A stretch of 28,746 bases of DNA from a virus (taxonomy: Duplodnaviria > Heunggongvirae > Uroviricota > Caudoviricetes), in IMG/VR virus record IMGVR_UViG_2713896907_000002, positions 1 through 28,746 of that record; one strand, 5' to 3'. The notes under the pieces are model-generated. The model was not told where the DNA came from. It saw only the letters and a list, made by a program, of their open reading frames with translations, and made no database searches. Made by a program: the position numbers and the translations under genes. Each line of letters begins with the position of its first letter. Position 1 is the first letter of the stretch. Positions 2,239-27,534 of the stretch are shown here, in pieces.

Positions 2239-3333
2239 ATGTTCATTACTAACACTGATGTTTTTACCTTTCTTTTCTTAGCTATATCATTAATAGCGGC
2301 TATTTTTGTCAAAAAAATAATCCCATCAACCGTAATAAATGTACATAATGACACAACCTTAGAAGGTTTAAGAGGCATTGCATGCTTATTTGTATTTATA
2401 AATCATGCTTCATATAGCATTCATCACATCGGAATACAAAATTGGCAAATGATGGGTGATTCACCATATACCGGGAGAATGGGAGCTTTCGGAGTGGAGA
2501 TATTTTTCTGTTTGACAGGGTACTTGTTTGCAAAAAAGATTCGCAAAGGAGATATAGACTTGTCATTTTTTGAAAAAAGAATCAGGAGGCTTGCTCCTGC
2601 ATATATATTTGTATCATTTGTAGTTTTTATATATTTCGTATTTATGAACTATAATGTTATTCGTGGTTACTACGATATATCGGCTTTGATCCAACAAATT
2701 TTCGGATTCGGTTTCTTTGGGAATAGAATATCTGTAAACGGTATGGTGGATACATCATTGAATGCTGTTGTGTGGACGCTTCCTTATGAATGGAAGTTTT
2801 ATGCAATAGTCCCCTTCGTAGCGGCTATTTATAAGCTAAGAAGGCCAATCCCTCTACTTATCGCATTTGGAGTAGCGACTGTTTGCATTGACTATTGGTC
2901 GAAAATGTTCTTGTGGGGGTTTTTCGTAACCGGATTCATTGCTTCATTCGTTGGTATTTTAGAAAATAGATATCTTAAGTATATCTCATATTACATAATG
3001 CTATTCCTATTTGCATATGCATTTAAGGGATCATTTGATATTCATGGTTTCCAAATGTTTGTCGTAGTATCTTTATTTTTCATAACATTTATTGCGGCAA
3101 GACCTAAGATATTCTCCATAGGAGTATTTGTTTACCTTGGAACTATAAGCTATAGCATTTATCTACTACATCAGGTAGTTACAACGGTTTTCATGAAATT
3201 AATCTCTGGGGTAATCGATCTACTTACCATAAATATGTATGAATACTTAATGGTCTGCATCATACCAATATCACTTACAATTTACTTATCATCTATTAGT
3301 TACAATAAAATAGAGAAAAAATTCATCAGATAA
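2239..3333 (+). CDS. Acyltransferase family 3 membrane protein (OafA/Oac-like O-antigen acetyltransferase), 364 aa
   Basis: ATG start. About ten hydrophobic helices. N-terminal region LEGLRGIACLFVFINHASY resembles the conserved R/H-containing first-helix motif of acyltransferase-3 proteins. Strongly AT-rich compared with its flanks and on the opposite strand to its neighbours. Confidence 0.8.
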   Translation: MFITNTDVFTFLFLAISLIAAIFVKKIIPSTVINVHNDTTLEGLRGIACLFVFINHASYSIHHIGIQNWQMMGDSPYTGRMGAFGVEIFFCLTGYLFAKKIRKGDIDLSFFEKRIRRLAPAYIFVSFVVFIYFVFMNYNVIRGYYDISALIQQIFGFGFFGNRISVNGMVDTSLNAVVWTLPYEWKFYAIVPFVAAIYKLRRPIPLLIAFGVATVCIDYWSKMFLWGFFVTGFIASFVGILENRYLKYISYYIMLFLFAYAFKGSFDIHGFQMFVVVSLFFITFIAARPKIFSIGVFVYLGTISYSIYLLHQVVTTVFMKLISGVIDLLTINMYEYLMVCIIPISLTIYLSSISYNKIEKKFIR

Positions 3334-3380: not shown

Positions 3381-5603
3381 TCAGCTGTTCGAGATTTTAC
3401 CAGATATCCTAAATCTTAGCGCTCCAGATTTGATGTAATTGTATGTGAGGAAAGTTCTTGTGCCATCAGATGCCACGGCATAGAACTGAATCTTTGTGAA
3501 GTCTGTAGCTCCTGTAGGAATAAATCCAATAACATCGACAGTTCCTGCTGGTAATGCATTCCCAAGCGCTGTCCTGACCTCTATCTCGCATCCTGCCCCT
3601 GGATAAAAACCAAGCCCTCTGGGAAGGGTGATTGTGATATTTCCTGTACCGCCTGTTGTTCCTGTAACATTTATACTTACATGCAAATCAACATGCTCAC
3701 CATCCCTCCTTGCAGTATATGTGCCAGTTTGTGTTACAGCTGTAGTATCATCGAAACCGATACTTCCAGTTAAGGCCGCATTAACCTGTAGTTCAGATTT
3801 AAATCCGCATATATTATTTCTCCACGGAATCGTTGGTTTATCACCATCCCATGTGATGGGTTGCGATGAAAAATGAGTTATTTTATTACCAAGAAATTTT
3901 AAATTAAACAAGTTGTTATTTATATCGCCAACAAGATAAGCAGCATAAAAAGGTAGCCCTCCCGTAACAACCTGTTCATTGTGAGAAGTTACAACAGCAT
4001 CGTGTATAGTATTGCTGGTTGAGCGAATCACAAACCCATAACCACCATTATCCATCGTTGCGCCAGAATCTGGATCTAATTTTGCAACGCTATCAGCATA
4101 TGGTCTATAAAGTGTATGCCCACCAGATATCAATTCAAAACCGATTAACATTTGCCTGTTAGGATATAAATCATCTGATGTTTTAGGATGTCCCCATGGA
4201 TGAGGATCTACAAGAGTATTCGCTCCGGTACCAGAAATGCGAATGCCTATTGGATAATCTATCGTTATAGGGTTTACAAAATGGCTATCACCAGTGCGAA
4301 TCCACAATCCAACTACCGACTTGCTTTCCCATTTCATAATTCCAAAGCAACTATGCATAATTGCGATTTCATAACCTATTGAAGGAATACCACCAATATC
4401 TGCCCCGCCTCTTAGCATCCCCCACGTTTCCATCTGACCTACCGTAACACCAGCTATATGCGTCATCAGAACACCAATTGCATCAACATGTTGGTAATAT
4501 ACGGTTCCCCAGTCAGTATTCTGCGTATGTCGTATGTGAATTCGTGGAATATAGGTACGCTTATCGCTATATGTGGTCGTTGGTGACATAATGTGATAGA
4601 CAGCCTTATAGCTATTTCCTGCGGCATCTACTGTTTGGAAATCACCAGTTGGATCTGCCCATATAACACCAGTCTGCAATACGCTAAGCCCTGCCAGATG
4701 CTTAATTGATGATTTAACCCGATAGACATTTGGCAGCCAAACTGTTTTGTTATTCTCATAAGCATAGTCATACGCATCCTGAATCATCACAGCCCAGTCA
4801 GTTTCTCCTGGATGATTTGCATAGAACTGCTCAGGTGTAACAAACTGCGAACGCGCAAATAGATCGTTTAAATCTGTTTGCACTGTACCGCTGGACATCG
4901 TGCCTATCAAACAACTTCCTGTTGGCTTCGCTAGTTCTATGAGAACATCAGCAGCAGAACCAGATTCTGGTAGTAGCATGATTGGGTTACCATTATCATC
5001 CATGCCTACAATTTTGTTTTTTCTCAACTCAACTGGTGGTAACTGCGGGATCATTTCTGCCGTGCGTAACGTTCTGCTAAAGAGAAGATCCGTATGCGAA
5101 GTGTTTCCAGCGCTAAGTGAGTCAGCATAATTCTTTGTCGCTGCATCCTGAGGGCGAATAGGGTCTCTTAAGTTTCTAATGTAGTTGTTTAGTGCGTCGT
5201 AATAATTAGCCACGAACGACGGCTTTCGCAGAACAAGGCTAAACCAACTACGCACTTGCTGGATCAGCATCGTCAGCTTATCGAACGCGTCTTCATGCAC
5301 CTCAGCGAAAAACTTTCCCTGATTGCGCAGATCAGTTTCCTGCGTAACCGGTAGCTCTCGTGATATAGAAATCTGATAACCGTTAGCCAACGCCTTCGAC
5401 AGAATTACATTACCGCCGTTATATCCTCCAGCTCCGGTAACTGTATAATCAGTATCAAGAGTCAGCACAGCAATATTTTCGTTAAGGTCAGAGACCTGAA
5501 CAACCAAGTCGGATTTTTTGAAAATACGGAAGGTATACGGAAATGATGTCGTAACGCCGTTACCTGTGTATTCGTTGTGGTCAACTTCGGTTGAGACCGT
5601 CAT
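3381..5603 (-). CDS. Tailspike / tail fiber protein (about 740 aa from the internal ATG)
   Basis: The track ORF starts at TTG (5705); the ATG at 5603 (MTVSTEVDH...) is preceded by GGAG. Large Gly/Thr/Asn-rich protein with beta-rich composition, located next to the host-range/seroconversion genes. Confidence 0.7.
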   Translation of the reverse strand: MTVSTEVDHNEYTGNGVTTSFPYTFRIFKKSDLVVQVSDLNENIAVLTLDTDYTVTGAGGYNGGNVILSKALANGYQISISRELPVTQETDLRNQGKFFAEVHEDAFDKLTMLIQQVRSWFSLVLRKPSFVANYYDALNNYIRNLRDPIRPQDAATKNYADSLSAGNTSHTDLLFSRTLRTAEMIPQLPPVELRKNKIVGMDDNGNPIMLLPESGSAADVLIELAKPTGSCLIGTMSSGTVQTDLNDLFARSQFVTPEQFYANHPGETDWAVMIQDAYDYAYENNKTVWLPNVYRVKSSIKHLAGLSVLQTGVIWADPTGDFQTVDAAGNSYKAVYHIMSPTTTYSDKRTYIPRIHIRHTQNTDWGTVYYQHVDAIGVLMTHIAGVTVGQMETWGMLRGGADIGGIPSIGYEIAIMHSCFGIMKWESKSVVGLWIRTGDSHFVNPITIDYPIGIRISGTGANTLVDPHPWGHPKTSDDLYPNRQMLIGFELISGGHTLYRPYADSVAKLDPDSGATMDNGGYGFVIRSTSNTIHDAVVTSHNEQVVTGGLPFYAAYLVGDINNNLFNLKFLGNKITHFSSQPITWDGDKPTIPWRNNICGFKSELQVNAALTGSIGFDDTTAVTQTGTYTARRDGEHVDLHVSINVTGTTGGTGNITITLPRGLGFYPGAGCEIEVRTALGNALPAGTVDVIGFIPTGATDFTKIQFYAVASDGTRTFLTYNYIKSGALRFRISGKISNS

Positions 5604-5711
5604 GTTAAATCTCCAGATAGTCGCACGCAGCACCCGTTGCGCCGCATATCTGGTTATTCTATTACCCAAAAAACCAGATATGGATAGAATAACTATAAAT
5701 ACCAATAGGTG

Positions 5712-5726
5712 TTACCTTTCAGGTAA
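5712..5726. promoter_or_regulatory. TTACC-N5-GGTAA palindrome (perfect)
   Basis: TTACC TTTCA GGTAA in the divergent intergenic region between the tailspike start (5603, minus) and the 85-aa gene (5803, plus). Identical 15-mer to the site at 24453-24467. A TGTATAAAT extended -10-like element lies at about 5767-5775. Confidence 0.5.
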
Positions 5727-5802
5727 TTTGCATGCCGTGCTGGATAGCAAATAAATCATCTGCTACTGTATAAATATATAGTTATTGCATGGAGAAGATA
5801 AG

Positions 5803-6060
5803 ATGCAGCAGTATCACTATCCACTGGAAGACGGATTTACCGAAAGGATTCACACGCCGGGAGGCGTCAGGTCACTGGTGGAGGGATCGCACTTGATGAA
5901 ATTACTCCGGGATCTCGATAAGGATGGATTTAATGTCGATGGCCCACTTGCCGAACTGACTGCACTGATTAACTACGTCACCAGCTCACAGATGTCTATG
6001 CGGGATCTGCAAACACATCTCGACTATTGTGCCGAACAATTACGAAAACAAACCAGATAA
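5803..6060 (+). CDS. Small protein (85 aa) paralogous to the C-terminal domain of the adjacent antirepressor
   Basis: Track ORF starts at TTG 5785; the ATG at 5803 follows GGAGAAG with a 5-nt spacer. Residues LMKLLRDLDKDGFNVDGPLAELTALINYV...MRDLQTHLDYCAEQ align by eye with LMNLLNQLQEDGHDVSGAAAELTTMFCYI...LRDIQMHAEYINDK of the 231-aa protein, roughly 40 percent identity over about 50 residues. Confidence 0.6.
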   Translation: MQQYHYPLEDGFTERIHTPGGVRSLVEGSHLMKLLRDLDKDGFNVDGPLAELTALINYVTSSQMSMRDLQTHLDYCAEQLRKQTR

Positions 6061-6091
6061 GGTTTGTAATTACCAAATGGAGTGCTTATAT

Positions 6092-6106
6092 TTACCTTTG
6101 CGGTAA
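6092..6106. promoter_or_regulatory. TTACC-N5-GGTAA palindrome (perfect)
   Basis: TTACC TTTGC GGTAA about 30 nt downstream of the 85-aa gene stop and upstream of the structured leader preceding the antirepressor gene. Confidence 0.45.
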
Positions 6107-6133
6107 ATTTACATCGCACTCCTCTTGTGCCAT

Positions 6134-6185
6134 AGTAATCGGGCACTGGCAAAATCCAGTGCCGGGATTGGCGTCCCGGATTACT
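6134..6185 (+). ncRNA. Structured RNA element candidate (multi-stem fold) in the antirepressor leader
   Basis: Outer stem AGTAATC (6134-6140) / GATTACT (6179-6185) enclosing a hairpin GGCACTGG-CAAAAT-CCAGTGCC and an alternative hairpin CCGGGA-TTGGCG-TCCCGG. No ORF of note overlaps on either strand. Confidence 0.3.
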
Positions 6186-6198
6186 AAAAGGCGCATTC

Positions 6199-6218
6199 AC
6201 CGCACAAGCGGTTTTTTT
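6199..6218 (+). terminator. Rho-independent terminator candidate (short stem plus T7 run)
   Basis: ACCGC-ACAA-GCGGT stem-loop followed by TTTTTTT (6212-6218), between the 85-aa gene and the antirepressor gene. Confidence 0.4.
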
Positions 6219-6317
6219 ATGCGTATAGCACGGCCACATTCGTATTATGGTGGGCTGTGTGGGGGCACCGAAAGGTGCGCCGGGTCCTTTTAGCCGGTTA
6301 CGCCAACCCTGCACAGT

Positions 6318-6350
6318 TCACCACCAACCGATTGGCGTCGGTAGTGGTGA
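6318..6350 (+). promoter_or_regulatory. Hairpin immediately upstream of the antirepressor ribosome-binding site
   Basis: TCACCA (6318-6323) pairs with TGGTGA (6345-6350), enclosing CCGA-TTGGCG-TCGG. It shares the 10-nt GATTGGCGTC (6330-6339) with the upstream hairpin at 6166-6175. Lies about 12 nt before the AAGG Shine-Dalgarno of the ATG at 6376. Confidence 0.35.
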
Positions 6351-6375
6351 TTAACCAGACTAAAAGGTAACCACT

Positions 6376-7071
6376 ATGACAGCTACAAAAAGCACGTCCA
6401 TTTTTTCTTTCGAATCCCAAGCCGATATACGAGTAATCGTCATTAATGGTGAGCCATGGTTTATCGCTTCAGATGTTTGTCGGGCTATAGGCATAGCAAA
6501 CCATCGAGATGCTGTTCGAAAACTTGATGATGATGAGAAGGGCGTCGCTTCAACCGACACCCCTGGCGGTGAGCAAGAATCGATCATCATCTCCGAGTCA
6601 GGCCTCTACACACTGATCCTCCGCTGCCGCGATGCGGTGACACCAGGCACTATCCCCTACCGCTTTCGTAAATGGGTTACAGGTGAGGTACTTCCTCAGA
6701 TCCGCCGCACCGGAAGCTACATTAAAAACTCGCTCCCGCAGGAAGAACGGATAAAGATGGTTGCCGACCAGGTAGCCAACGCCACGGCGTCAGCAGTGAT
6801 GCAGGCAATGAAGATAGAGAACAAAACCTACAGTGCCCCGCTGAAGCCCGGATACCGCAGCCTGATTCATTCTCCGTCTGGTGTTCTCGGCCTGACTGAG
6901 AACTCACTTCTGATGAATCTGCTGAACCAGTTACAGGAAGACGGGCACGACGTATCTGGCGCGGCGGCGGAGCTGACCACCATGTTCTGCTACATCGTCG
7001 GTGTGAGCAAATGCCTGCGTGATATCCAGATGCACGCGGAGTACATAAACGACAAGGCAGGGTTCTTCTGA
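6376..7071 (+). CDS. Antirepressor-like protein with N-terminal Bro-N domain, 231 aa
   Basis: ATG start. The N-terminus (FSFESQADIRVIVINGEPWFIASDVCRAIGIANHRDAVRKL) matches the Bro-N / phage antirepressor N-terminal domain pattern. The C-terminal domain is paralogous to the upstream 85-aa protein. Confidence 0.75.
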   Translation: MTATKSTSIFSFESQADIRVIVINGEPWFIASDVCRAIGIANHRDAVRKLDDDEKGVASTDTPGGEQESIIISESGLYTLILRCRDAVTPGTIPYRFRKWVTGEVLPQIRRTGSYIKNSLPQEERIKMVADQVANATASAVMQAMKIENKTYSAPLKPGYRSLIHSPSGVLGLTENSLLMNLLNQLQEDGHDVSGAAAELTTMFCYIVGVSKCLRDIQMHAEYINDKAGFF

Positions 7072-7079
7072 CGGGCGGC

Positions 7080-7098
7080 GGCACAGGGATGTGCCTTT
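7080..7098 (+). terminator. Weak stem-loop terminator candidate after the antirepressor gene
   Basis: GGCACA-GGGA-TGTGCC followed by TTTAAAT; the T-run is short. Confidence 0.3.
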
Positions 7099-7136
7099 AA
7101 ATAATTCTGTACAGATTGCAGGTGAATAGCTTACTA

Positions 7137-7151
7137 TTACCTCACGGGTGA
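7137..7151. promoter_or_regulatory. TTACC-N5-GGTGA near-palindrome (site family member, one mismatch)
   Basis: TTACC TCACG GGTGA about 100 nt upstream of the perfect site at 7238. Confidence 0.3.
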
Positions 7152-7188
7152 TCCATAGCGATTAGGCACCGATACAGGAGGAGCCCAC

Positions 7189-7221
7189 ATGAGAAAATTT
7201 GACGAGTACGAAGGCGTTTAA
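7189..7221 (+). other. Mini-ORF (10 codons, MRKFDEYEGV) with a strong Shine-Dalgarno, possible leader peptide
   Basis: AGGAGGAG (7176-7183), 5-nt spacer, ATG at 7189, stop TAA at 7219-7221. Lies between two palindrome sites upstream of the 211-aa gene. Confidence 0.25.
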
Positions 7222-7237
7222 CATTCGGATAGTTCAT

Positions 7238-7252
7238 TTACCCTAATGGTAA
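7238..7252. promoter_or_regulatory. TTACC-N5-GGTAA palindrome (perfect) overlapping the presumed -35 region of the 211-aa gene promoter
   Basis: TTACC CTAAT GGTAA. A TATATATTAT -10-like block (7273-7282) and GAGGTGA Shine-Dalgarno precede the ATG at 7293. The palindrome centre is about 42 nt upstream of a plausible transcription start. Confidence 0.5.
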
Positions 7253-7292
7253 ATCCCGCTTAAAGAAGCATCTATATATTATGAGGTGATGT

Positions 7293-7928
7293 ATGCCACA
7301 ACAACTGCTGAATCCGGCAAAGGTAACTGAGGTTTTCGCTCATCTGAACGAAACTCCAGACAACCGCGCCCTGTATTCAGAGTTAGTGAACGGCAACGAT
7401 GTCACATCTGATGTCAAAGGCGTTTCTCTGGCTCCTGGATACCGCGTTGTCCGTGTAGACGATCGTAAGAAAGGCGAGATTCCACAGGCGCACTTTGAAC
7501 TGTCATTGATAAATGACCTCACCGAAGAGGTAGTGTATTACAATCGTGTCATTATCCAGCCTGACAGCTATCTTAACTGCCGTCCTGTCACGCAGATATT
7601 GGTATGGAGAACCCAGAAGCCTAAGCATCGTGCTGTGCTTCATGATTTCGCCGGCATCATCTTCATGAACTACCTCTTGGAACGGTACGATATCATCGTG
7701 TCTGATCGCAACCAGACTCATGAAGGCATGTCGTTCTGGCAGGCTCGCATGTATGACGCACTGGAACTTGGCCTCCACCTCTATGGTTACGACATGATGA
7801 CATGCGAGCTGATAGAGATGAATAACGAGGAAGAGCTTGAGAAAGGTGAAACCTGGTTGTGGGGTGATGCGGAAAACTTCCAAAACAGATTGGCCATAAT
7901 TTCAAAGCATAAGCTGCCAATAAAATAG
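7293..7928 (+). CDS. Hypothetical protein, 211 aa (orphan accessory gene with its own regulatory unit and terminator)
   Basis: ATG start with GAGGTGA Shine-Dalgarno. Soluble-looking protein with no motif I recognise. Followed directly by a strong intrinsic terminator. Confidence 0.7.
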   Translation: MPQQLLNPAKVTEVFAHLNETPDNRALYSELVNGNDVTSDVKGVSLAPGYRVVRVDDRKKGEIPQAHFELSLINDLTEEVVYYNRVIIQPDSYLNCRPVTQILVWRTQKPKHRAVLHDFAGIIFMNYLLERYDIIVSDRNQTHEGMSFWQARMYDALELGLHLYGYDMMTCELIEMNNEEELEKGETWLWGDAENFQNRLAIISKHKLPIK

Positions 7929-24452: not shown

Positions 24453-24467
24453 TTACCTTTCAGGTAA
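24453..24467. promoter_or_regulatory. TTACC-N5-GGTAA palindrome (perfect)
   Basis: TTACC TTTCA GGTAA, about 100 nt upstream of the portal-side operon start (minus) and upstream of the tRNA island (plus). A TTGACA hexamer lies at 24431-24436. Confidence 0.5.
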
Positions 24468-24788: not shown

Positions 24789-24865
24789 GTGGCATTAGAT
24801 CAGTTGGACAGAGCAACCGCCTTCTAAGCGGTTGGTCGCAGGTTCGAATCCTGCATGCCGCGCCA
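24789..24865 (+). tRNA. tRNA-Arg (anticodon UCU), phage-encoded, with encoded CCA
   Basis: Manual cloverleaf: acceptor GTGGCAT/ATGCCGC (one G-U pair), D-arm GATC-AGTTGGAC-AGAGC (one A-G mismatch), anticodon stem ACCGC/GCGGT with loop CTTCTAA, T-arm GCAGG-TTCGAAT-CCTGC, discriminator G, then CCA. Closely resembles enterobacterial argU. Confidence 0.8.
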
Positions 24866-27519: not shown

Positions 27520-27534
27520 TTACCGTTGTGGTAA
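27520..27534. promoter_or_regulatory. TTACC-N5-GGTAA palindrome (perfect) immediately upstream of the terminase small-subunit start
   Basis: TTACC GTTGT GGTAA, with an extra GGTAA half-site at 27512-27516. Centre is about 25 nt upstream of the ATG at 27502. Confidence 0.45.

Follow-up and report, generated by a model that had tools for sequence, protein, structure and literature searches.

As drawn here from the GenBank annotation of P1 and from secondary citations, the immI operons of phages P1 and P7 (RF01695, RF03163) run from tandem promoters, one of them controlled by the prophage repressor, and an operator through a first pair of target elements, a1 and b1, and a terminator-like hairpin to the antisense RNA C4, and then to a second pair of targets, a2 and b2, the latter with the ribosome-binding site. 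In P1, the gene icd lies between c4 and the antirepressor gene ant, and its translation is needed for ant. Repression in P1 works partly via, and ends in, Rho-dependent polarity. That C4 is processed by RNase P is noted, by citation, in PMC11143913.

A related arrangement, isrK-orf45(STnc1160)-anrP (RF01394), is found in the Salmonella prophage Gifsy-1, where transcription of anrP is driven by the isrK promoter, basal translation is absent, a short RNA provided in trans activates it more than 100-fold, and either G28A or G31A abolishes this activation (Hershko-Shalev et al. 2016, PMC4825925). Processing at the C4 position yields a stable RNA, STnc1160; mutating a1 by itself increased basal translation, and STnc1160, when co-expressed, strengthened the IsrK effect instead of relieving it (PMC4825925). 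A simple model in which C4 represses and IsrK titrates accounts for neither of the last two results.

We compared these systems with a 28,746-nt stretch of viral DNA (positions 1 to 28,746 of IMG/VR record IMGVR_UViG_2713896907_000002, Caudoviricetes; hereafter, the window), in which a preliminary description, made from the sequence alone, had singled out the interval 6061-6375 as a highly structured, non-coding leader of an antirepressor gene. The interval is a further copy of a known phage RNA switch, unannotated in phiV10-like prophages, and represents no new type of element. Most likely, it controls a P1-type immI operon at the RNA level in an E. coli prophage of the phiV10/epsilon15-like (Uetakevirus) group, with C4 masking the ant ribosome-binding site.

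The gene downstream of the interval, ant (6376-7071, plus strand), encodes a 231-aa antirepressor with a Bro-N domain and an Ant C-terminal domain (Pfam Bro-N, 2.4e-21; PHROG 130 'anti-repressor Ant', 1.6e-62). Its ATG at 6376 lies 51 nt past the inferred 3' end of C4 (6325) and is preceded, across an 8-nt spacer, by the Shine-Dalgarno sequence AAGG at 6364-6367. No icd-like ORF is present between C4 and ant in the window; in SfV-like loci, a 77-aa ORF occupies the C4-ant position. The DNA of phage ZX5 is 96.9% identical over the region 5600-7100, and over-expression of its anti-repressor, ORF4, brought the prophage titre down about 1000-fold (PMC9782041).

The leader is indeed highly structured, its minimum free energy of -135.1 kcal/mol comparing with -96.6 +/- 5.1 kcal/mol for 100 dinucleotide shuffles (z = -7.6), none of which was as stable. 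It also proved to be non-coding, as claimed, the overlapping ORFs having just 35-37 codons and no Pfam or NCBIfam match. Because the reverse strand is likewise stable (z = -6.9), fold energy alone cannot pick the strand; the plus strand was chosen on the evidence of the Rfam matches, together with the T-run and the direction of the genes. A small RNA on the opposite strand was considered and rejected: a permissive Rfam scan of both strands gave noise alone on the minus strand (E > 1), and the z-score of that strand merely mirrors that of the plus strand. All the hairpins and sites previously listed were recovered in place. The twin hairpins with the common sequence GATTGGCGTC are present in exactly two copies in the 28.7-kb window, at 6166-6175 and 6330-6339, with TTGGCG looped in both. 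The compact fold described at 6134-6185 is present as a three-way structure (-26.1 kcal/mol), but its outer stem strand (6134-6140), which overlaps the -10-like box CATAGT, precedes the inferred RNA 5' end at ~6143, so that this stem could form only in transcripts begun further upstream.

Three options had been offered for the function of the leader, namely, a small RNA, an attenuator, or a pair of hairpins recognised by a protein. The third found no support, whereas the first two were right in kind: the Rfam search that had been proposed matched two small RNAs, one IsrK-like and the other C4, with a terminator between them. In the IsrK-like, or c4-a1b1, module (6143-6218, plus strand), hairpin 1 (6143-6162) and hairpin 2 (6163-6178) are followed by an unpaired stretch and the intrinsic terminator. 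Two 5' hairpins and then a Rho-independent terminator are the arrangement that marks the IsrK family, which is further characterised by short and read-through isoforms and by Hfq binding. It matches RF01394 (isrK) over its full length with 76.9 bits, against a gathering score of 50, and RF03163 (c4-a1b1) with 45.1 bits, slightly below the gathering score of 46.7. Across 20 loci, 10 of its base pairs show double changes, and 89.8% of the cells are paired, compared with 31-49% in slid controls. The terminator (6199-6218, plus strand), an ACCGC/GCGGT stem followed by seven T residues, coincides with the 3' end of the isrK model and is the predicted end of a ~76-nt transcript. It is the sole plus-strand terminator-like site in a scan of 5550-7300; its stem, of only 5 bp (-6.8 kcal/mol), co-varies across loci. 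The terminator is enclosed by a clamp helix between GCGCAU (6191-6196) and AUGCGU (6219-6224; whole element 6191-6224, plus strand), which can form in read-through RNA alone and, with differing sequences, appears in the minimum-energy fold of 18 of the 20 diverse loci, including P1.

The second RNA is C4 (RF01695; Rfam extent 6243-6328, plus strand), matched with 77.7 bits against a gathering score of 45, over model positions 1-87 of 87 (E = 7.7e-14). Antisense control of antirepressors had also been invoked in the preliminary description. Alignment with the annotated C4 of P1 predicts a mature RNA of 77 nt (6249-6325) ending in ...ACC(A). The C4 fold (-45.6 kcal/mol) has a long acceptor-like stem enclosing two hairpins, which was predicted independently in all 20 homologues folded; its CC-A-CC 3' end is invariant, 96.4% of the cells are paired, and 10 pairs show double changes, the slid controls reaching 33-55%. 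The compensatory changes in the helices of both RNAs, a check that had been suggested together with the Rfam search, are well above slid and shuffled controls. The GAAA-tetraloop hairpin (6265-6278, plus strand; -7.7 kcal/mol) is part of C4; that it belongs to a tRNA-like RNA of 77-86 nt had gone unrecognised. An alternative hairpin (6318-6350, plus strand; -17.0 kcal/mol), with a2 in its loop, joins UCACCACC, the 3' side of the C4 stem, to the conserved downstream sequence GGUGGUGA, retained in 20 of 20 loci; this hairpin and the full C4 stem are mutually exclusive.

The antisense elements of C4 are b' (CCTTTTAG, 6286-6293), in the loop of its hairpin 2 and the sole copy of this 8-mer in the window, and a' (ACGCCAA, 6300-6306), in its single-stranded junction. 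On the same plus strand, a' is complementary to a1 (TTGGCGT, 6168-6174), in the loop of hairpin 2 of the IsrK-like module, and to a2 (TTGGCGT, 6332-6338), 6 nt past the inferred C4 3' end, whereas b' is complementary to b1 (CTAAAAGG, 6184-6191) and to b2 (6360-6367), which overlaps the ant Shine-Dalgarno. The complementarity is exact over 7 nt for the a elements and 8 nt for the b elements. The repeated GATTGGCGTC hairpins are, accordingly, the two "a" target sites. The second complementary pair, CTAAAAGG with CCTTTTAG, had been overlooked; CTAAAAGG occurs at 6184 and 6360 only, and no second target elsewhere for the C4 elements was found within the 28.7-kb window.

The same relationships hold in each of the 20 loci compared, where a' and b' fit their own upstream and downstream sites despite the sequence differences between loci. 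For example, P1 combines CACTAAC with GTTAGTG, APSE-7 has CCTTGTTAGC and SfV has CCTTGATCA, and the a' variants across loci include GTCTCAA, AGACCAA, GTGCAAA and GTAGCAA. Cognate helices scored 31.1 compared with 21.8 for non-cognate ones, and none of 10,000 permutations reached the observed value, a result for 20 diverse phages in which a within-locus linkage effect remains. Whole-molecule RNAduplex comparison of C4 with its flanks was uninformative because C4 gets unfolded, and the analysis was restricted to the loop and junction instead. The tandem order, isrK followed by C4, was found at the gathering threshold in 19 of the 20 loci, Salmonella SW-37 passing for C4 but not for isrK.

A consensus scan of the plus strand yielded two promoter-like sites as pattern matches. 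The upstream site (6064-6092; TTGTAA, 17-nt spacer, TATATT) corresponds in position to P2c4/P51a when the tandem layout is set against the P1 annotation. The downstream site (6108-6136; TTTACA, 17-nt spacer, TGc-CATAGT; predicted RNA start ~6143) aligns with P1c4/P51b of P1 (-10 TATAGT) and with the Gifsy-1 isrK promoter; the block CTTGTGCCATAGT is invariant in 52 relatives. We infer that these sites serve as promoters, both being weak consensus matches of a kind no more frequent here than in shuffles. Between these two sites, past the -10 of the first and ahead of the -35 of the second, lies the palindrome TTACCTTTGCGGTAA (TTACC-N5-GGTAA, 6092-6106, no strand), which we consider operator-like based on site count and half-site conservation. 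With at most one mismatch, 9 such sites are found in the window against 0.58 expected, and in 52 distinct relatives the half-sites are retained, the 5-nt spacer being variable. The window ORFs that were scanned included no recognisable repressor gene.

Reasoning from P1 and Gifsy-1, we propose that transcription starts at one or both of the promoter-like sites, which flank the operator-like palindrome, and that the first part of the RNA would be a decoy C4 target, with a1 in a hairpin loop followed by b1. Some transcripts would end at 6218, producing the short IsrK-like RNA of ~76 nt, whereas read-through RNA would carry the C4 fold, and this C4 would be cut from the longer precursor by RNase P, as in P1, and trimmed at its 3' end to the 77-nt tRNA-like RNA 6249-6325. 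With b' (CCUUUUAG) offered in the hairpin loop and a' in the single-stranded junction, C4 would pair with a2 and b2 in the ant leader; because b2 covers the Shine-Dalgarno, the antirepressor would not be translated, and the prophage repressor would stay active. The a1/b1 elements may compete for the same C4 elements, either in cis within the precursor, as in the predicted minimum-energy pairing, or in trans as the short RNA, so that the balance between short RNA and C4 would decide whether Ant is synthesised.

A more elaborate version of this scheme can be suggested only tentatively, and we would not expect it to hold: a three-RNA switch in which the terminated IsrK-like RNA acts as an anti-antisense "sponge" that titrates C4 and thereby triggers Ant synthesis, while a and b jointly form a two-part address code shuffled between prophages. 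Among phiV10-like relatives with an Ant at least 75% identical to that of the window, there are at least four a'/b' combinations, and in most E. coli and Stx-phage copies a' = ACGCCAA is shared and b' alone differs. Moreover, the b' of the window also fits b2 of WGPS8, an Stx2a phage, with a helix score of 8.5 and an a' score of 7, so that co-resident prophages could cross-talk via shared RNA addresses. In that case, a Uetakevirus and an Stx phage residing in the same cell could cross-repress or cross-induce each other's antirepressors. The ant leader of one Stx2a phage has GAAAAAGGA as its b2 element.

The same elements could be read as an IsrK-type self-activating mRNA, in which cis pairing of a1b1 with a'b' locks the read-through RNA, the short RNA opens it in trans, and the C4 segment serves as a cis element or small ORF only. 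We consider this reading unlikely, although it draws on the predicted fold itself: when 6143-6322 or 6143-6400 is folded, the minimum-energy structure pairs a1 with a' and b1 with b' in cis. In addition, the homologous locus of Gifsy-1 has been studied by genetics and on native gels (PMC4825925), and mapping of the mutated bases on the Gifsy-1 LT2 sequence confirms that the published G28 and G31 fall in a1 (IsrK nt 26-32) and C159 and C162 in a' (nt 158-164), the compensatory mutations G28/C162 and G31/C159 being within the a1:a' helix. This numbering fits Gifsy-1 itself, which was used in place of SW-37, a possible stand-in with a different hairpin 1 and an isrK below the gathering threshold. 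However, a self-activating mRNA leaves unexplained both the conservation of a2/b2, with their co-variation with a'/b' in every locus, and the placement of b2 on the Shine-Dalgarno, and in the cis fold of the window the ant ribosome-binding site is mostly unpaired. The orf45 frame needed for coupling in Gifsy-1 stops 22 nt short of ant here (ORF 6247-6354), and in 50 of the 95 related copies the ORF that begins at the conserved ATG breaks off after 14-15 codons. Furthermore, the Gifsy-1 double mutants did not regain the basal level (PMC4825925, Table 1D), as predicted for a trans-acting C4 with a mutated a'.

We give little credence to control of the P4 CI type, whereby the main effect of pairing between the processed RNA and its upstream and downstream sites would be to stop transcription early, at 6218 or through Rho inside ant, and not to block the ribosome. 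The terminator directly 3' of a1/b1 and the conserved clamp helix, which joins b1-adjacent sequence to the segment past the T-run, would suit such a mechanism, as would the known end of P1 repression in Rho-dependent polarity. The analogy with P4 seqA/CI/seqC was made by the Gifsy-1 authors themselves (PMC4825925). Yet, in most loci as in the window, b2 and the Shine-Dalgarno overlap, which points to a translational block as the primary event, and in Gifsy-1 the transcriptional fusion changed 8-fold compared with 139-fold for the translational one (PMC4825925).

It is highly improbable that the interval is conserved due to coding constraint on a small protein of 35-37 aa, "Ash family" or orf45-like. 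The ZX5 equivalent of 6257-6370 is annotated as an "ash family protein", Pfam Phage_ASH matches long ORFs spanning the same module in SfV-like phages, and translation of orf45 has been reported in Gifsy-1 (PMC4825925), but the window ORFs of 35, 37 and 88 codons showed no family in searches of Pfam, NCBIfam and PHROGs. The small-ORF frame is interrupted by TAG at 6226 and TGA at 6352, and ORF length varies even among close relatives (14, 15, 17, 35 and 100 codons), whereas substitutions obey base pairing, with 10 compensatory pairs in C4; with no family found and ORF length unconserved, we rejected this reading. Finally, binding of a coat-protein-like or antiterminator-like protein to the two hairpins can practically be dismissed despite their identical 10-nt sequence, because the loops (TTGGCGT, TTGAGAC, TTGACAG, TTGGTCT, TTTGCAC, TTGCTAC) each fit the a' of their own phage, and such concerted change of the loop and the C4 junction from phage to phage is the signature of RNA-RNA recognition.

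Control of ant by C4 would account for the silence of the antirepressor in phiV10/epsilon15-like prophages. In the ZX5 study, the antirepressor drives the lysogeny-to-lysis switch, and its control was left open there (PMC9782041). Of 5,426 complete E. coli genomes, 293 cover 80% or more of the 1.5-kb region, and 999 have some match to it. At this position, the RefSeq/GenBank records of these phages have no feature at all, a "terminator" with no further detail, or a CDS named "ash family protein", and the assignment of C4 and IsrK corrects this annotation. The multi-phage comparison also provides a clean natural compensatory series for the target rules of C4.

Among the systems that this locus resembles in part, P22 immI (sar, Arc, Mnt, Ant) likewise places an antirepressor under post-transcriptional antisense control, in a temperate podophage and beside the gene for the tailspike. 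The P22 sar RNA, however, is made from the other strand and spans the ant ribosome-binding site, whereas the regulator proposed here lies on the same strand and would act in trans. A P22-type sar/Arc/Mnt arrangement was not found: Rfam gave no sar or credible minus-strand RNA match, and the neighbouring ORFs lack Arc/Mnt domains. P4 immunity, by description, relies on a processed CI RNA located between two complementary sites, seqA and seqC, of the same transcript, as in the window, but its outcome is premature transcription termination of replication genes, in contrast to the antirepressor ribosome-binding site addressed here. In the APSE phages of Hamiltonella (Rouil et al. 2020, PMC7313666; LR794147), the annotation places isrK-family and C4-family RNAs in tandem immediately ahead of a Bro-N protein and marks a' and b'. 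Their a/b sequences (GTCTCAA and CCTTGTTAGC) differ from those of the window, and the authors also report a match in a distant DNA polymerase gene (PMC7313666), whereas the window has no second target.

The correspondence with P1/P7 immI comprises the same RNA fold, the same order of elements from the promoters to b2 and the ribosome-binding site, the antisense elements likewise in the hairpin-2 loop and the junction, and an antirepressor likewise as the regulated function; that the whole layout is the known design of P1/P7 immI and Gifsy-1 IsrK had been missed in the preliminary description. The spacing is also similar, with 9 nt in the window compared with 7 nt in P1 for a1-b1, 21 versus 22 nt for a2-b2, 8 versus 10 for b2 to the ATG, and tandem promoters 44 versus 40 nt apart; a2 lies 3 nt past the annotated C4 3' end in P1 and 6 nt past the inferred end here. 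The tandem promoters and operator of P1 are represented by promoter-like sites and an operator-like palindrome, TTACC-N5-GGTAA, as opposed to the asymmetric C1 site of P1. The a/b sequences differ from those of P1, and the specificity hence differs; the Ant of the window is of the Bro-N type, with no relation to P1 Ant1/2 found in these searches; and the host element is a 39-kb integrated podophage rather than a plasmid prophage. Because ant follows directly without icd, b2 masking its ribosome-binding site itself, the Rho-dependent polarity step of P1 cannot be the same here.

With Gifsy-1, the window shares the full-length isrK match, a C4-shaped RNA directly upstream of the antirepressor without icd, and the same a element, UUGGCGU with ACGCCAA, whereas the b elements are of the CGGTGAT class in Gifsy-1 and CCTTTTAG here. 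The stop of orf45 overlaps the anrP start (ATGA), allowing translational coupling, in contrast to the unconserved ORF that ends upstream of ant in the window, and isrJ was not found downstream in the window by the Rfam scan. The Gifsy-1 "structure A" matches the cis fold of the window, in which the a1:a' helix is the predicted ground state. The multi-phage comparison ties the genetics of Gifsy-1 IsrK to the a1:a' helix of P1, leaving the known concept unchanged.

The leader at 6061–6375 lies between an 85-codon ORF (5803–6060, + strand) and the 231-codon antirepressor gene ant (Bro-N; 6376–7071), and every structural element that the preliminary description had placed in this interval was found in its position. 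When both strands were folded against dinucleotide shuffles, the plus strand of the leader reached −135.1 kcal/mol, compared with −96.6 ± 5.1 (z = −7.6); the opposite strand was nearly as stable (z = −6.9), so the strand was chosen on evidence other than fold energy. Searching the entire window with Rfam at gathering thresholds produced three matches, all on the plus strand: C4 antisense RNA (RF01695; 6243–6328; 77.7 bits against a threshold of 45) and isrK (RF01394; 6143–6218; 76.9 bits against 50), both full length and within the leader, and an unrelated phage-borne tRNA (24789–24862; 60.8 bits). A permissive scan of the window added c4-a1b1 (RF03163) at 6130–6182, slightly short of its threshold (45.1 bits against 46.7), and no credible RNA match on the minus strand. 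Hairpin 1 of C4 accounts for the previously noted GAAA hairpin; the compact multi-stem fold corresponds to the pair of 5’ hairpins in the IsrK/a1b1 module, whose terminator is the hairpin followed by seven T residues. The suspicion of RNA control was correct, and the element belongs to the known C4/IsrK immI family.

C4 carries two antisense elements, b’ (CCTTTTAG; 6286–6293, +), in the loop of its second hairpin, and a’ (ACGCCAA; 6300–6306, +), in a single-stranded junction, and the exact complement of each is present twice. The a’ complements, a1 and a2 (TTGGCGT; 6168–6174 and 6332–6338, +), form two identical hairpin loops, within the sequence GATTGGCGTC that occurs in the whole window only at 6166–6175 and 6330–6339. 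The b’ complements, b1 and b2 (CTAAAAGG; 6184–6191 and 6360–6367, +), flank C4 likewise, b2 including the ant Shine-Dalgarno sequence AAGG, 8 nt 5’ of the ATG; CCTTTTAG and CTAAAAGG have no further copies in the 28.7-kb window. In the predicted minimum-energy folds of 6143–6322 and 6143–6400, begun at the inferred RNA start (6143), a1:a’ and b1:b’ are paired in cis.

Beyond its anatomy and complementarity, our analysis demonstrates covariation of the module across related loci, with compensatory changes in both RNAs. For C4, standard pairs make up 96.4% of pair cells (slid-partner controls, 33–55%), 10 pairs have changed on both sides, and none of 500 shuffles reached the observed values; for the IsrK module, the fraction is 89.8% (controls, 31–49%), again with 10 pairs changed on both sides, and shuffles reached the observed values in 0 of 500 cases on four measures and in 2 of 500 on pair types. 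The covariation between RNAs is more telling than that within them. The loop and junction sequences vary by locus, b’ taking forms that include CCTTTTAG, CCTTGTTAGC, CACTAAC, CCTTTGTAG, CCTTTTTC, CCTTGATCA, CATGTGCGA, CCGATAAC and CCACTTAG, among others, and a’ the forms ACGCCAA, GTCTCAA, CTGTCAA, AGACCAA, GTGCAAA, GTAGCAA and CTGCGAA, yet they fit the upstream and downstream sites of the same locus (mean helix score, 31.1 cognate versus 21.8 non-cognate), and at least four a’/b’ combinations occur among close phiV10-like relatives alone. None of 10,000 permutations reached the observed total, be it the combined score or that of b’ by itself, in a test that is inflated by within-locus linkage. 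The preliminary description had also offered a pair of protein-recognised hairpins; here, the loops change in step with the C4 elements, and such matched three-way changes are expected of RNA–RNA recognition, not of a protein-binding hairpin.

Two additional structures were recognised. A covarying clamp helix (6191–6196 with 6219–6224), shared by 18 of 20 related loci, P1 among them (L004, about 48272–48298), and absent from the Rfam isrK model, encloses the terminator, joining b1-adjacent sequence to bases just past the T-run, and is possible only after read-through. Downstream of a2, the conserved GGUGGUGA (6343–6350) has the 3’ strand of the C4 stem (6318–6325) as one possible partner, giving the hairpin described earlier at 6318–6350; alternatively, AGUGGU (6343–6348) can pair with ACCACU (6370–6375), which abuts the ant AUG, leaving b2 and the Shine-Dalgarno sequence in the loop. 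These two partners are mutually exclusive, suggesting that start-codon access is conformationally coupled to the folding or processing of C4.

The window is an E. coli prophage of the phiV10/epsilon15-like (Uetakevirus) kind, and its region 5600–7100 is 94–97% identical to phages ZX5, TL-2011b and phiV10; matches span 80% or more of it in 293 of 5,426 complete E. coli genomes. An Acyl_transf_3 gene adjoining the tail fibre gene (2239–3333, +) probably corresponds to the phiV10 O-antigen acetyltransferase. Most of the leader length is matched, at 82–99% identity, in 78 of the 79 viral contigs with a close Ant relative, the single exception (L012) ending 75 nt upstream of ant, and some 279 phage records, such as those of Stx phages, SfV, APSE, Hafnia yong2, a Klebsiella phage and Salmonella SW-37, contain more distant matches. 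In 20 diverse loci scanned at Rfam gathering thresholds, C4 was present in all and isrK, about 20–25 nt upstream of C4, in 19; Salmonella SW-37 has C4 and isrJ above threshold and isrK below it. The isrK-like hairpin 1 of SW-37 has diverged, and, as in Gifsy-1, its C4-regulated gene is followed by the isrJ match (L087:2017–2091; 101.7 bits).

The C4/IsrK element is unannotated in this phage genus: no RNA is annotated at the leader position in phiV10, ZX5 or RefSeq E. coli records, and the ZX5 record labels part of C4 as an “ash family protein”. Pfam PF10554 (Phage_ASH) maps onto the isrK, C4 and leader module in long annotated CDSs of SfV-like phages (E = 1e-12 to 1e-18; L085:1173–1455, SfV orf37; L086:1189–1471, Hafnia yong2; L092; L096); the corresponding window frame (6226–6354), interrupted by stop codons, has no Phage_ASH match. 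The “Ash” family may represent these RNA genes read as protein, yet in SfV-like phages the Ash frame is open from the upstream through to the downstream gene.

The ORF at 5803–6060 is a stand-alone copy of the antirepressor C-terminal domain (42% identity to Ant residues 150–223; both match PHROG 450), and its product might act as a modulator or competitor of Ant. Some relatives have another gene in place of this ORF. Palindromes of the TTACC-N5-GGTAA family occur at nine sites in the window (0.58 expected), perfect at 5712–5726, 6092–6106, 7238–7252, 24453–24467 and 27520–27534 and with one mismatch at 1942, 2188, 7137 and 27502. Several genes, among them the 85-aa ORF, the C4 operon, ORF 7293 and the small terminase gene, are preceded by a site of this kind. 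Comparison of 52 distinct relatives shows conserved half-sites around a freely varying spacer; the sites look like operators for a DNA-binding protein.

Extrapolating from P1 and Gifsy-1, transcription would start at promoter-like sites flanking such a palindrome; some RNA would end at 6218, producing a short RNA with a1 and b1, and read-through RNA would be processed to C4, which would pair with a2 and b2 and mask the ant ribosome-binding site. Competition for C4 would come from the a1/b1 copy, both in cis, inside the precursor, and in trans, when carried by the short RNA.

Hershko-Shalev et al. 2016 (PMC4825925) carried out a genetic dissection of the Gifsy-1 isrK-orf45-anrP locus of Salmonella. 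There, anrP is transcribed from the isrK promoter, basal anrP translation is absent, and short IsrK in trans raises it more than 100-fold, an activity lost with G28A and with G31A; the pairings are G28–C162 and G31–C159, and a stable processed RNA, STnc1160, arises 3’ of IsrK (PMC4825925). Placing this numbering on the Gifsy-1 LT2 sequence, where all eight mutated bases agree in identity, puts G28 and G31 within a1 (UUGGCGU, nt 26–32) and C159 and C162 within a’ (ACGCCAA, nt 158–164); the cis fold of the window corresponds to Gifsy-1 “structure A”. The double mutants failed to regain the basal level (Table 1D, PMC4825925), which is the expectation for C4 acting in trans while carrying an altered a’. 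Two results misfit the simplest version of the model, namely, that a1 mutations alone raised basal expression and that co-expressed STnc1160 enhanced the IsrK effect (PMC4825925), so the a1/b1 role is the least certain step. The orf45 stop overlaps the anrP ATG in Gifsy-1, whereas the window frame ends 22 nt before ant, and this frame is shortened to 14–15 codons in 50 of 95 relatives; coupling by way of an orf45-type ORF is therefore not conserved. In ZX5, whose corresponding DNA is 96.9% identical to window 5600–7100, over-expression of the ORF4 anti-repressor lowered prophage titre about 1000-fold (PMC9782041).

For phage P1, the GenBank record marks the Oc4 operator, the P2c4 and P1c4 promoters, a1, b1, a 77-nt C4 RNA, a2, b2, icd and ant. 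The P1 C4 hairpin-2 loop CACTAAC pairs with b1 and b2, and the junction CTGTCAA with a1 and a2. The spacings are similar in the window and P1, respectively: 9 and 7 nt between a1 and b1, 21 and 22 nt between a2 and b2, 8 and 10 nt between b2 and the ATG, and 44 and 40 nt between the two promoter-like sites, with the −10-like CATAGT (6131–6136) aligned with TATAGT of P1c4. Aligned with its P1 counterpart, mature C4 in the window would span 6249–6325 (77 nt), and this predicted RNA ends in an invariant, tRNA-like CC-A-CC; RNase P is documented to act on C4 (cited in PMC11143913). Unlike P1, the window has no icd ORF, and ant follows C4 directly, whereas SfV-like lambdoid phages (L085, L086, L089, L094) have a 77-aa ORF (MATVPALTRLND...) in the icd position. 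The element is real, and its direct ant layout, shared with APSE, Stx Pankowvirus phages and Gifsy-1, has been seen before in Gifsy-1 and in APSE, where, in APSE-7, isrK-family and C4-family RNAs with marked a’/b’ are annotated directly 5’ of a Bro-N gene (PMC7313666).
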